A stretch of 64,000 bases of DNA from Escherichia coli (GCF_017348835.2 NZ_CP072315.1), one strand, 5' to 3'; positions 40,927 through 62,599 are shown, counted from the first letter of the stretch. The notes: generated from the sequence alone by a model not told the origin. Numbers and translations are program-made.

Positions 40927-40939
40927 GAAAGTAACTTTA
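40927..40939. repeat. 13-bp palindrome family AAAAGT-N-ACTTTT, copy with one mismatch
   Basis: gaaagtaacttta read directly, between convergent genes. Confidence 0.6.
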
Positions 40940-41746
40940 GGCCCCGCGAGCTTTTTCGATTGCGCCCTGCAAAGTTGCTGCGTCCATAGCCCCGGGGATA
41001 AATGTGGTAGTCGCCGCATTCGGCTTTTTCATATTCATAATGATGAAGCCGGGTGTGCCGGTGATCCCAAGCGCTTCGCCCAGCTGCATGTTGCCGGAGA
41101 TCACGTTTTCATATCGGTTTTTTTCCCTGTCAGAAAACGTGCTGTTAAACCCTGACTTATCCACCACAGTATTAAAGTCGCTGAGTTCGAATTTGCGTTG
41201 AGAGGTCATGAAGGTATGAGCCACAGCCATCAGGTTGTTGTGGTATTTACGATAGGCTTCAGCACCGAAATTCTGATAGACGTGCAGACCCGTAGCGGCC
41301 CCCATGGCAGATACAGGTTTTGAACCGGCAAAAATCGGGAATTCTTTAAAGAAGAATTTTACATCTTTGCTCTGATTCATTACCGATTCAACAACAGGTG
41401 TAACCCGCATGCAGTAAATACACTGATAGTCGAAGAACTCGATTACCGCGACGTCGGCGTCATCCGGGCCGATGTTTGGCGTCTCCTTGGTATCCAGCAG
41501 AGCTGGCGCATATGGAATTATTCGTTCCACTGAGGCACTTACGTTCTGATTTTCCAGCGCCTTACCTGCTTCCACTAAATAATGGGGATTTTTTACCAGG
41601 TAAGTAGCGGCAATTTTGCCAATTTCTTCCTCACTGAGCACCTTCGGTTTAAAATAAGTTGCCGCGATTAACGCCGAGGCAGCGGTAGCAATTACCGCAG
41701 AAATTAAAATCGTGGCCATCGGTTTTAAATAAAATTCTTTAGACAT
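40937..41746 (-). CDS. thioredoxin-fold (DsbA/DsbG-like) thiol:disulfide oxidoreductase with a CIYC motif
   Basis: 269-aa ORF with an N-terminal hydrophobic segment and ...EFFDYQCIYCMRVTP... Confidence 0.6.
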   Translation of the reverse strand: MSKEFYLKPMATILISAVIATAASALIAATYFKPKVLSEEEIGKIAATYLVKNPHYLVEAGKALENQNVSASVERIIPYAPALLDTKETPNIGPDDADVAVIEFFDYQCIYCMRVTPVVESVMNQSKDVKFFFKEFPIFAGSKPVSAMGAATGLHVYQNFGAEAYRKYHNNLMAVAHTFMTSQRKFELSDFNTVVDKSGFNSTFSDREKNRYENVISGNMQLGEALGITGTPGFIIMNMKKPNAATTTFIPGAMDAATLQGAIEKARGA

Positions 41747-41852
41747 AGCTACCTTTATGCTTTTCAGCCTGTTAGTTATTAACCTGCGATGGATTATACT
41801 GGCCCGGTAAATCGGAATTATTCGTGAAACAATGCTTTTTGGAGATTAAAGG

Positions 41853-60300: not shown

Positions 60301-60515
60301 TCTATCTGACCCAATCTTGCGTGGAAAAATTTGGGTCGCAGTTAGAGGCTCAAGATCTTTTCAATAAGCTTCCTCAGTACCTCGTTAATTCTGGTGCTGT
60401 GATCAATACAAAATGCCATGCATTTAACATGCCTACTTTGCTGGCCGCATCAGACCGGGCGAAAGTGGACATTGAACGAATTATCAATAACCTGAAAGAG
60501 GCTGGGAACCTATAA
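57363..60515 (+). CDS. traI: MOBH-family conjugative relaxase (TraI-like, HD-domain type)
   Basis: 1050-aa ORF with ...LLPASENHHHNGIGGLLSHSLEVA...LVHDAGKVYD... (His cluster plus HD-like motif), immediately upstream of the coupling-protein gene. Confidence 0.7.
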   Translation: MMMNFRALYLCIKRILGIFSSQENDATSVMIEDISSLSPFAQILGDQKYTVPDHPNPEVLKFIEYPTRPTGIQTFNEQSILSLYREKLHSISMMLAISDSDIRDDAYTFTNLVLKPLVEYVRWIHLLPASENHHHNGIGGLLSHSLEVAILSLKNAHHSELRPIGYQDEEVVRRKVYLYAAFICGLVHDAGKVYDLDIVSLNLASPIIWTPSSQSLLDWARENDVVEYEIHWRKRIHNQHNIWSSVFLERILNPVCLAFLDRVNKERVYSKMITALNVYTDGNDFLSKCVRTADFYSTGTDLNVLRDPIMGLRSNDAAARAISTIKHNFTSININNYNAKPMHIIIVNGEVYLNENAFLDFVLNDFELHKYNFPQGEAGKTVLVESLVQRGYVEPYDDERVVHYFIPGIYSENEISNIFRNGIGKLEFYNLLKLRWIGLIFDSYKIPDSVPGLFSVNANKDFIYIDEQKTVTEYRRPVPGRDAITKITDTVETAVLKVNDLGRSTASIDVDIHSKKNEGSSDDFEKKAESDNEIDNDTQIVKSEGEEAADPVIPDIEESEDESAKDTESHVLVNQLHELLLSAPLSNDYIVCVDAVPYLNIDATMALLPGLDEKAFSEEPYFQLTFREGSLDGMWIVRDIDDLRLVQLGDNCAGFQLTYHEPRRPTTLKSLFNTSMYQALVINDESSVENSAPRPKQTLELPPPRVNAVEEHSGDVEYHGTDSASATGPLKTEAVEYEHYQHLFEEEDEEHEIIDYTDFTQLSVSRPEVGSCATSSSVHNEKLLPEPSELPELNREQNADPQGTIERSMDVSVGQENSEPDTEGNCPPPAEVVYSQTEAAATSVMASEEPALPPVLEESNGEHAPTDAKGHHLSPALARLFAPTAPVEKQNPKRNRNKSSDKAEVQKPASPVSGHNLNSKVFATTESDQNGEFSLISEGDVTELEFVEIASVLHQILSKMEVAFKRKRKNRFMVSTPNTLYLTQSCVEKFGSQLEAQDLFNKLPQYLVNSGAVINTKCHAFNMPTLLAASDRAKVDIERIINNLKEAGNL

Positions 60516-62599
60516 TGTCAGATTCGAAGAGGACTAACCTCCATGCACAAGAGAATTTTTATCGGCCTATTCTTGAGTATCGTAGTGCCTCAATACTTTT
60601 GATTTGTTCGGTTTCTATGCTTTATATGGGACTTTCTTCAGACGGACTGGACATCGCCCCAATAGTTCTGTTCACCTCAATATTGCTTTTTTTGCTGTGC
60701 CTTTATCGTTGCAAAACAGCAGCGCCATTCTTGATGGCTCATTGGCGTGTATTCAAGCGACATTTCATGTTCGTTAGTCTTGATTCACTGCGTGTAATTA
60801 ACAAAAGTAACTTTTTCTCCAATGAGCGAAAGTATCGTCAACTGGTTCAGGATTATCAAAATAAAAATAAGGATATACCCGAGCGAAAGTCCTATTTTTG
60901 TGATGGGTTTGAGTGGGGCCCGGAACATGCGGATCGGGCATATCAAATAGCTAACCTCTCCAGTGATAAACGTGAGATCGAGTTGCCATTCGTCTTCAAC
61001 CCAATTAAGAGACATTTTGACGCAATGGCTCGTAAGATGGGCGGCAGCAATGCAATTTTTGCTGTGGAACGTAGGGAACCCATATTTGTAACTGAAGACA
61101 ATTGGTTTGGTCATACTCTGATAACCGGAAACGTGGGTACCGGGAAAACGGTGCTACAGCGTTTACTAAGCATTAGCATGCTTCATCTTGGTCATGTTGT
61201 TGTTGTCATAGATCCAAAGAACGATGCAGAGTGGCGAGAATCTCTAATGGAAGAGGCTAAGACCCTCGGTCTTCCTTTCTATAAATTTCATCCTGGCCAG
61301 CCAGCATCTTCGGTCTGTATTGATGTCTGCAACACCTATACTAATGTTTCTGACCTAACATCTCGTCTTTTGAGCTTGGTGACAGTTCCCGGTGAGGTTA
61401 ACCCATTCGTTCAGTATGCCAAGGCTCTCGTTTCCAATGTGATTTCCGGGCTTTCTTACATAGAGAAAAAGCCTTCTATTTATCTGATTCACAAGAACAT
61501 GAAAAGCCACATGTCTATTGTGAATCTTACAGTCAAGGTAATGGAGTCATGTTACGCGAGATATTATGGTTACGATGTCTGGACCGAAAAAGTTAAGTAC
61601 GTCGCTAACGAAACCTTGCCGGTACGTTTCAAGCGTCTCGCTGAATGGTTTACGGCTCATTTCATGAATTACGAGGGGTCCGAACAAATAGACTGGTTAG
61701 ATACTGTTTCCCAGCTTATTGATTACTCAATGTCCGACCCAGAGCATATGGCTAAAATGACCGCAGGTATTATGCCTGTTTTCGATATGCTCATTGAAAA
61801 ACCTTTAAATGAGCTTTTATCTCCTAACCCGAACTCAGTATCATCAAGAGAAATTGTAACAAGCGAAGGGATGTTCAGCACTGGCGGGGTGCTATACATT
61901 TCGCTTGATGGCCTTTCAAACCCCGATACAGCAGCTGCTATTTCTCAATTAATAATGTCAGATCTGACCTCCTGTGCCGGTAGTCGCTACAACGCTCAGG
62001 ATGGTGATATGTCAGCTAATTCCAGGATAAGTATTTTTGTTGATGAGGCACACTCAGCCATTAACAACCCTATGATTAACCTTCTGGCGCAGGGTCGTGC
62101 AGCGAAAATTGCACTGTTTATTTGCACCCAAACCATCTCCGACTTTATTGCTGCGGCAAGTGTTGAAACTGCCAATCGAATTACGGGGCTCTGCAACAAT
62201 TATATAAGCTTGCGAGTCAACGATACTCCTACTCAGACGCTTGTTGTAGAGAACTTTGGTAAGAGTGCGATAAGCACAAATATGGTCACTTATACGACCG
62301 GTTCAGAAACATCTTTGCCGCATAATAACTTCTCAGGTTCAATCTCAGAAAGAAAGCAGACAACTTTAGAAGAGAGTATTCCAAAGGATCTCTTGGGTCA
62401 GGTCCCTATGTTTCACATAGTTGCCAGGCTTCAAGATGGCAGGAAGGTTGTAGGCCAAATCCCTATTGCTGTTGCTGAGAAACAAATGAAGCCAAACACA
62501 ACTCTGTCGGAAATGCTTTTCAAGAAGGCCGGAAAAGTTACTTTGCGTCAAAATCTCGATATCAAAAATCTTAATAAATTTCTAAGGAAGTTGCATTGA
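60515..62599 (+). CDS. traG: type IV coupling protein (TraD/TraG/VirD4 family ATPase)
   Basis: 694-aa ORF with N-terminal transmembrane segments and Walker A LITGNVGTGKTV. Confidence 0.85.
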   Translation: MSDSKRTNLHAQENFYRPILEYRSASILLICSVSMLYMGLSSDGLDIAPIVLFTSILLFLLCLYRCKTAAPFLMAHWRVFKRHFMFVSLDSLRVINKSNFFSNERKYRQLVQDYQNKNKDIPERKSYFCDGFEWGPEHADRAYQIANLSSDKREIELPFVFNPIKRHFDAMARKMGGSNAIFAVERREPIFVTEDNWFGHTLITGNVGTGKTVLQRLLSISMLHLGHVVVVIDPKNDAEWRESLMEEAKTLGLPFYKFHPGQPASSVCIDVCNTYTNVSDLTSRLLSLVTVPGEVNPFVQYAKALVSNVISGLSYIEKKPSIYLIHKNMKSHMSIVNLTVKVMESCYARYYGYDVWTEKVKYVANETLPVRFKRLAEWFTAHFMNYEGSEQIDWLDTVSQLIDYSMSDPEHMAKMTAGIMPVFDMLIEKPLNELLSPNPNSVSSREIVTSEGMFSTGGVLYISLDGLSNPDTAAAISQLIMSDLTSCAGSRYNAQDGDMSANSRISIFVDEAHSAINNPMINLLAQGRAAKIALFICTQTISDFIAAASVETANRITGLCNNYISLRVNDTPTQTLVVENFGKSAISTNMVTYTTGSETSLPHNNFSGSISERKQTTLEESIPKDLLGQVPMFHIVARLQDGRKVVGQIPIAVAEKQMKPNTTLSEMLFKKAGKVTLRQNLDIKNLNKFLRKLH
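60802..60814. repeat. 13-bp palindrome AAAAGT-A-ACTTTT (perfect), inside the coupling-protein gene
   Basis: aaaagtaactttt read directly. Confidence 0.7.

Follow-up and report, generated by a model that had tools for sequence, protein, structure and literature searches.

What recognises the 13-bp palindrome AAAAGT-N-ACTTTT (AAAAGTNACTTTT) that recurs along the backbone of an IncHI2 plasmid? The copies lie in a 64,000 bp stretch of Escherichia coli DNA (GCF_017348835.2, NZ_CP072315.1), referred to here as the window. Its left 39 kb, a resistance mosaic, includes a class 1 integron, floR, tet(A) and IS elements, and positions 40000-64000, which are 100% identical to many IncHI2 plasmids, form the Tra1 region with umuDC, a dsbA-like gene, trhG/H/F, trhY, trhR, the oriT gap, mobI/traH, the mobH relaxase gene and traD. 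A sequence-only reading of the window had listed nine copies, five perfect and four with one mismatch, and took them for a dispersed operator set of a dimeric, possibly ParB/KorB-like, protein. The recurrence is real but the true count is six perfect, four one-mismatch and one two-mismatch copies, and all computational tests agree with an operator set of this kind. Comparison of related plasmids suggests that the palindromes are probably binding or loading sites of R0104, an orphan ParB-family protein of the IncHI backbone.

The mismatched sites of the window, like the perfect ones, have an intact 11-bp core, AAAGTNACTTT. All 11 core copies of the window fall at 40.9-62.6 kb, within 39001-64000, and the resistance mosaic (1-39000) has none, as had been read. 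Dinucleotide shuffling gives an expectation of 0.01 perfect copies in the window, and 0.19 with no more than one mismatch, against the 6 perfect copies observed, which bears out the earlier estimate that chance would supply far less than one.

Plasmid-wide distribution and conservation of the palindrome

Two further plasmids were used for counting and comparison, the complete IncHI2 plasmid pEGY49_MCR-1.1 (210,842 bp) and the IncHI1 prototype R27 (180,461 bp). pEGY49_MCR-1.1 carries 23 perfect and 20 one-mismatch copies (21 and 18 unique), and R27 carries 26 and 24, respectively. Core copies number 45-46 per plasmid, with a median spacing of ~3.5 kb. Perfect copies expected on pEGY49 under Markov models of order 1, 3 and 5 are 0, 0.17 and 0.2, against the 23 observed, and no other palindrome of the 6-N-6 form is enriched on this plasmid, the runner-up having 4 copies. 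None of the copies falls in the mcr-1, integron or transposon insertions of pEGY49. The set that had been read in the backbone of the window is thus backbone-borne but, as the counts across the complete IncHI2 plasmid show, it is plasmid-wide and not specific to Tra1. A ~20-kb inverted duplication of backbone genes in pEGY49 (169447-189604 and 189899-210056), either real or an assembly artefact, double-counts three of the motif copies.

Over the 101 kb that could be aligned by BLASTN, pEGY49 and R27 share 72% mean identity. Identity at motif positions is 92%, against 67.5% in the ±40 bp flanks, and of 12 perfect IncHI2 sites that could be aligned, 10 have a perfect R27 counterpart, among them sites in trhH, trhU, trhI, traD and a tus-like gene. 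Because the motif is more conserved than its flanks even inside genes, the alignment indicates purifying selection between IncHI1 and IncHI2 that acts on the DNA word.

A symmetrised logo of 123 core sites reads (g)A-AAAGT-W-ACTTT-T(c), with A or T at the centre in 90%, and the information content falls to ~0 past ±7. The sequence-only reading had allowed that the sites might be pieces of one longer repeated element, and this is not so, as no information is retained past that point. Lone half-sites are no commoner than hexamers of the same composition and enrichment is confined to the full palindrome, which points to recognition by a dimer.

Placement of the sites is uneven with respect to genes. 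Outside annotated genes lie 19 of the 39 unique IncHI2 sites (49%), compared with 20.5% of the DNA, a 2.4-fold excess (p = 8e-5); the PLSDB annotation used for this test is incomplete, and the identical annotation was applied to sites and background. Intergenic sites are found 10-250 bp 5′ of start codons or right behind stop codons, and those in genes fall in all three reading frames, so that they do not represent a peptide motif. Positions kept between plasmids include two in the oriT gap, 5′ of trhR and of mobI/traH, and one ~250 bp 5′ of the pilin gene trhA. Copies also flank the main-replicon iteron array on both sides in IncHI2, R27 and a Klebsiella plasmid, despite the differing iterons. 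An AT-rich bias of the H-NS type was not found, the DNA around the sites (±50 and ±150 bp) having the GC content of the plasmid background in R27 and an only slightly lower one in IncHI2.

The orphan ParB-like protein R0104

Candidate binders were sought among backbone proteins whose promoters bear conserved sites. IncHI plasmids encode orphan ParB-like proteins (PHROG 1033) besides the ParA-partnered ParB (PHROG 1146). The orphan paralogues, here A, B and C, correspond to R0104, R0037 and R0042. R27 has all three, R0037 at 40890-41966, R0042 at 45191-46348 and R0104 at 92336-93541, and IncHI2 plasmids have two, lacking C (segments L002:3000-4055 and L005:15760-16944). In IncHI2 protein A is 394 aa, and its gene (165760-166944 of the record) lies ~11 kb past the right end of the window. 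A backbone-encoded regulator, as the sequence-only reading expected, is therefore represented by an orphan ParB-like candidate, but its gene is outside the window.

In seven related replicons, 1-6 copies of the motif are present within 900 bp upstream of the R0104-type gene. The copies are at -102 and -228 in IncHI2 and at -106 and -224 in R27. Full-length homologues with 35-36% identity to protein A are encoded by large Klebsiella MOBH plasmids that carry the identical motif. In Klebsiella pneumoniae p1 six perfect copies precede the homologue (-122 to -871) and five more adjoin the iterons, with 12 perfect copies in 40 kb overall, and in K. grimontii six copies are found from -131 to -871. 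A Yersinia intermedia contig encodes a homologue with 44% identity and has a perfect copy at -110, and in a Leclercia-type contig, whose homologue is 50% identical, two one-mismatch copies lie at -258 and -291. The nearest non-orthologue, P0034 (318 aa), has a two-mismatch copy near -100 and four palindrome copies in 21 kb. Six-copy clusters occur only before the R0104 orthologue, apart from the looser group beside the iterons. An IncC plasmid (NZ_CP110913.1) that encodes only a distant partial homologue served as a control and has 0 motif copies.

Three of these loci have further features. The P0034 gene (10001-10957 of a Logan SRR5240292 contig) is located among psiA, an AcrVA2-like gene, HigB and an N6/N4 methyltransferase, surroundings that look like a plasmid leading or establishment region. 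The 40-kb K. pneumoniae p1 locus includes a G+C-rich palindromic repeat (CCCCCG...CGGGGG) present 15 times, as well as a Cas6-like protein and a helicase at 26.3-28.7 kb; these repeats resemble a CRISPR array, perhaps that of a type IV-A plasmid system. The IncC plasmid has a palindrome of its own, TTTCACA-TGTGAAA (extended form ACTTTCACATGTGAAAGT), found 7 times in 40 kb (record 5331-45906), probably the counterpart, on IncC, of a dispersed set of ParB sites, and it encodes a ParA and 'KorB domain' protein pair and an orphan ParB.

Pfam HTH_ParB (PF17762) matches residues 149-209 of protein A (E = 1.5e-5), and phmmer and profile searches match the ParB DNA-binding domains 6s6h and 6t1f in the PDB. 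An AlphaFold (AF2) model has a mean pLDDT of 73, with values >90 across most of residues 20-250. The best Foldseek match to this model is RK2 KorB in complex with KorA (8qa9, E = 3e-8, TM 0.66 on the target), followed by ParB-CTPgS (7bnr), Noc (7ol9) and Spo0J (1vz0) over ~220-230 aligned columns, and the predicted fold includes an N-terminal ParB/Srx-like nucleotide-binding domain. The full-length family is narrow. Among 1.84 billion representatives, 3 clusters at 50% identity cover the profile end to end, 19 have E ≤ 1e-30 and 187 have E ≤ 1e-10. Residues H184 and R186 of the recognition helix are invariant in orthologues, with overall identity down to 35%, and differ in paralogues B and C. 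Co-variation between helix and site was not obtained, the relatives down to 35% identity keeping H184/R186 together with the same motif, and a locus scan across genomes with the family alignment added one extra locus only, which limits this test.

The protein A gene adjoins no parA, and the canonical ParA-binding peptide [LFI]G[KR]G[LFI] is in none of the paralogues. No small KorA-like neighbour conserved across the lineages was found beside the gene, a partner encoded elsewhere being possible. Literature searches on the motif string, R0104, regulators of IncHI plasmids and IncHI-borne ParB-like or KorB proteins found no description of the motif, of its binder or of the function of R0104, and a 2025 survey, in which orphan ParB proteins are widespread, does not treat the IncHI case (PMC12704722).

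Alternative binders and roles

Several points weigh against R0104 as the binder. The evidence tying the protein to the sites is associative, and co-occurrence alone cannot single out R0104 among shared backbone genes because all of the motif-bearing replicons share related IncHI-like backbones. A simple sigma-70 scan found no promoter hexamers overlapping the sites, and promoter and terminator consensus scans of the oriT-gap sites and the R0104 promoter gave nothing informative. The R27 deletion Del7 (90,001-96,150), which includes R0104, was obtainable and not reported unstable, so no phenotype is yet attached to R0104 (PMC4853401). Del1, which includes paralogues B and C, was also obtained, and marked instability was reported for Del16 only (PMC4853401). 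Of the 19 systematic 5-7 kb deletions of R27 in that study, Del18 was never obtained (PMC4853401).

The predicted nucleotide pocket also looks atypical. The orthologue alignment shows a box-I-like FNTR, an invariant G143-N144, and LRQG(A/H)CRxRA in place of the GERRxRA of ParB and KorB. The GERRxR box is thus degenerate (G-A/H-C-R-x-R), with the Glu and the first Arg replaced. G99, R102, R104 and N144 are invariant in the family and, by motif position only, R102 is opposite KorB R117 and N144 opposite KorB N146, a registration of the boxes that depends on aligning A with B and on the TIGR00180 match of B. The residue before N144 in protein A is Gly, at a position where ParB carries Glu. In KorB, R117A abolishes CTP binding and N146A abolishes hydrolysis (PMC11790492). 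With the Glu and first Arg of the GERR box missing, nucleotide binding by protein A is therefore plausible only, and hydrolysis may be weak by analogy with that reported for VirB.

The remaining points concern the paralogues. The C-type paralogue P0036, on a 4.2-kb JGI metagenome contig, has a perfect 15-bp GCAAAGTTACTTTGC at -43 (2160-2170), R27 paralogue C has a near-copy at -96, and a C-type paralogue in which N replaces H retains the 11-bp core upstream. Use of the core may therefore extend to more than one paralogue, or paralogues may be regulated through it. It is possible, though not likely, that the binder is another backbone protein, whether R0042, R0037, TrhR, TrhY, HtdA or an unannotated small protein, and that R0104 is merely regulated. 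Sites are located both 5′ of and within trhR, the binding sites of TrhR, TrhY and HtdA are undescribed in the literature, and every lineage examined has an IncHI-like backbone, all of which would suit such a protein. However, IncHI2 plasmids keep the full site set without paralogue C, so C is not required, and paralogue B has a siteless promoter in addition to its different recognition helix. TrhR, TrhY and HtdA, like the ParR-like protein and the 284-aa Dam neighbour, match no DNA-binding family in NCBIfam or PHROGs, and the restriction of six-copy clusters to the R0104 orthologue, iteron-side group aside, is also not expected of another binder. R0042 is reported to be induced at 25 °C and in an htdA mutant (PMC7366339). 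On the P0036 contig a Dam-like methyltransferase gene is divergent to the paralogue, the same gene order as Dam-R0042 in R27.

Membership of R0104 in the ParB family raises the prospect that the sites are dispersed parS-like centromeres, bound by R0104 or by the canonical ParB and serving ParA-driven segregation, as with the SopB sites of N15. Clusters flanking the replication origin in three lineages, and the resemblance of the six-copy Klebsiella clusters to centromere arrays, are consistent with this. However, R0104 has neither an adjacent parA nor the ParA-binding peptide, the sites are evenly spread with many in genes, and the parAB operon has tandem 249-bp arrays of its own with zero motif copies. 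A centromere role is less likely because of these motif-free arrays, the missing ParA partner, and the report of neither Del7 nor Del1 as unstable (PMC4853401), and we consider it decidedly improbable. The canonical ParB was rejected as the binder, being of another PHROG family and having motif-free arrays of its own. In IncHI2 these arrays (L002 17719-18756 and 19318-20177; 4.2 and 3.5 copies) occupy a 3.8-kb gene-free stretch between trhC and parA and are presumably the Par1 centromere.

It is very unlikely that the sites serve a transcription factor or nucleoid protein of the enterobacterial host that IncHI plasmids exploit. The identical motif on plasmids of Escherichia, Salmonella, Klebsiella and Yersinia, despite diverged plasmid proteins, would fit a host factor, and the GT-N-AC core looks like that of generic GntR-type operators, but no E. 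coli regulator is known to have a matching motif. An IncC plasmid and a resistance mosaic from the same hosts are copy-free, and the tight clusters before a plasmid ParB-like gene would be left unexplained.

Equally remote is the suggestion that the palindromes are not protein operators at all but fragments of mobile elements or repeats, Rep sites, methylase or nuclease targets, or RNA signals, given that nothing is conserved past ±7, that a 6-bp A/U-rich stem with a 1-nt loop is unable to fold as RNA, and that a restriction or modification target would be expected to be avoided and not 100-fold enriched. The plasmids do encode several orphan methyltransferases and HNH nucleases, and each of the 44-bp RepHI1A iteron units of R27 (38331-39008) holds a degenerate motif-like AAAGGCAACTT (AAAAGGCACTTTT in three units) beside the iteron core CATTCATNCAAATGCTTT, which could be a weak interleaved site or a coincidence. 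A Rep initiator was rejected as the binder, and a Rep-related role is unlikely because the iterons are wholly different between R27/IncHI2 and the Klebsiella replicon (CATTCATNCAAATGCTTTT versus AAAACATTAACCGTCGTACGT) but the palindrome is constant. A REP/MITE-like dispersed repeat was likewise rejected, there being no conserved sequence past the short core.

Individual sites, related systems and the proposed network

The 11 sites of the window have no strand assigned. The leftmost, GAAAGTAACTTTA (40927-40939), overlaps the dsbA-like stop codon, in the gap where this gene and umuC converge. It had been taken for a single-mismatch copy but has two mismatches; its core is intact, and R27 has a one-mismatch counterpart likewise placed at the dsbA stop codon (TAAAGTTACTTTT at 122052). 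The next three also lie at gene ends. A perfect copy, AAAAGTGACTTTT (42491-42503; pEGY49 133245), is in the gap between two convergent hypothetical genes, and another, AAAAGTTACTTTT (43392-43404), is over the stop codon of a thioredoxin-fold gene, with the next gene 26 bp downstream and a one-mismatch copy at the orthologous position in R27 (119598). The one-mismatch TAAAGTAACTTTT (45485-45497; pEGY49 136239) begins 3 bp past the stop of a HAD-domain gene, in the gap between this gene and a convergent HNH endonuclease gene.

Four sites are found from trhH to the oriT gap. The perfect copy AAAAGTAACTTTT at 52397-52409 is in trhH, 28 nt from the start, where trhH overlaps the upstream thioredoxin-family (trhF-like) gene, and is kept in R27 at 111898. 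Within the trhR-like gene is a perfect copy, AAAAGTCACTTTT (55016-55028), which the sequence-only reading had overlooked together with the one-mismatch copy at 59365; its orthologous position in R27 (109260) has a one-mismatch copy. The oriT/divergent-promoter gap includes two sites. A perfect AAAAGTAACTTTT (55457-55469), 82 bp upstream of the trhR-like start codon, is perfect in R27 too (108820) though the flanks are only 68% identical, and the one-mismatch AAAAGTAACTTTA (55942-55954), 192 bp upstream of mobI (traH), has a perfect counterpart in R27 (108335), there 186 bp upstream of mobI.

The last three sites are in the relaxase and coupling-protein genes. TAAAGTCACTTTT (59365-59377; pEGY49 150119), with one mismatch, is within the MobH relaxase gene. 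A perfect AAAAGTAACTTTT within traD, which had been placed at 60802, is at 60803-60815, one base further on, and is perfect in R27 at 103599. The one-mismatch AAAAGTTACTTTG (62533-62545) is close to the traD 3′ end, and R27 has the same one-mismatch form at 101869. Elsewhere in the window, Rfam matches in the resistance mosaic are RNA-OUT (IS10 antisense RNA) and an AAC/AAD leader or attI element (31732-31801 and 2629-2703).

The closest known system is KorB of RK2, which has 12 sites of the operator OB, TTTAGC-S-GCTAAA (PMC11790492). Both systems combine a ParB-family protein with a dispersed 13-bp palindrome with a free centre on a conjugative resistance plasmid, and in both the sites are located at, near and far from promoters as well as before the protein's own gene. 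The protein A model matches KorB best in structure and has its order of N-terminal domain, helix-turn-helix, flexible linker and C-terminal domain, but sequence similarity is undetectable outside the helix-turn-helix. Unlike KorB, protein A has a degenerate GERRxR box and no ParA-binding motif, and its gene has no adjacent ParA (IncC) or KorA-like partner. IncHI plasmids also differ from RK2 in having ~four times more sites on a plasmid >3 times larger, with half of the sites in genes.

VirB of the Shigella plasmid pINV is, like protein A, an orphan ParB-like protein with no ParA partner on a large enterobacterial plasmid. It acts on a plasmid silenced by H-NS, loading at a near-palindromic inverted repeat (virS), spreading and altering transcription. 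VirB binds CTP and has little CTPase activity (10.1101/2023.06.01.543266), and low activity of this kind would fit the loss of the catalytic Glu in protein A. However, VirB sites are few, all upstream of virulence promoters and unrelated in sequence, whereas the ~45 IncHI sites show no AT-rich bias.

Noc of Bacillus subtilis, structures of which are among the top fold matches of protein A, is an orphan ParB paralogue with a palindrome (NBS) scattered replicon-wide, including in genes. It differs in being chromosomal and in effecting nucleoid occlusion via a membrane-targeting helix; the IncHI system is plasmid-borne, with sites enriched near promoters and nothing to suggest membrane tethering. 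The linear prophage-plasmid N15 has a SopA/SopB pair and four scattered palindromic SopB sites, some of which affect expression of nearby genes. As in IncHI, ParB-type palindromes are dispersed instead of forming one centromere beside the par operon, but IncHI plasmids have ten times more sites, protein A has no ParA partner, and deletion of the gene region in R27 was not reported to be destabilising (PMC4853401).

From the enrichment and selection of the sites, their presence together with R0104, their concentration at its promoter and its ParB/KorB-type predicted fold, we infer that R0104 probably binds the palindrome. Each AAAAGT half-site would receive one ParB-type helix-turn-helix of an R0104 dimer, and the ~45 sites, one every ~3.5 kb, would form a plasmid-wide network like that of KorB and OB on RK2. 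R0104 would control its own gene via the 2-6 sites upstream, and would also be positioned at or near promoters of transfer operons, namely those of the transfer regulator trhR, the relaxosome operon mobI/traH and the pilin operon trhA. Further sites would hold it on either side of the main-replicon iteron array, and from the many within genes or at gene ends spreading or sliding is possible, as for the ParB, KorB and VirB clamps. The effect could be repression, relief of silencing or organisation of the DNA, possibly governed by a CTP switch. A bolder version, which we regard as speculative and unlikely, is that the R0104 family is a ParB-fold switch with an unusual nucleotide pocket that coats the whole 180-250 kb plasmid from its ~45 sites, and is not a promoter-by-promoter repressor. 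The coat would act as a plasmid-specific chromatin that sets the H-NS/Hha-dependent temperature programme or marks the plasmid as self after conjugative entry.

R0104 is an undescribed and uncharacterised relative of ParB, KorB and VirB, set apart by the lack of a ParA or KorA partner, by a degenerate GERR box and by its ~45 candidate sites, half of them in genes. IncHI1 and IncHI2 plasmids are vehicles of multidrug resistance in typhoid Salmonella and, among other genes, of mcr-1 in E. coli and Salmonella, and their transfer is temperature-controlled via TrhR, TrhY and HtdA with H-NS and Hha. The literature describes no DNA targets for this circuit, and a conserved network of ~45 sites with a named candidate makes plasmid-wide control directly testable. 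Confirmation of the network would extend the use of ParB-like clamps as gene regulators, as proposed for KorB and VirB, to a clinically major plasmid family, and would offer one protein-DNA interaction to target.

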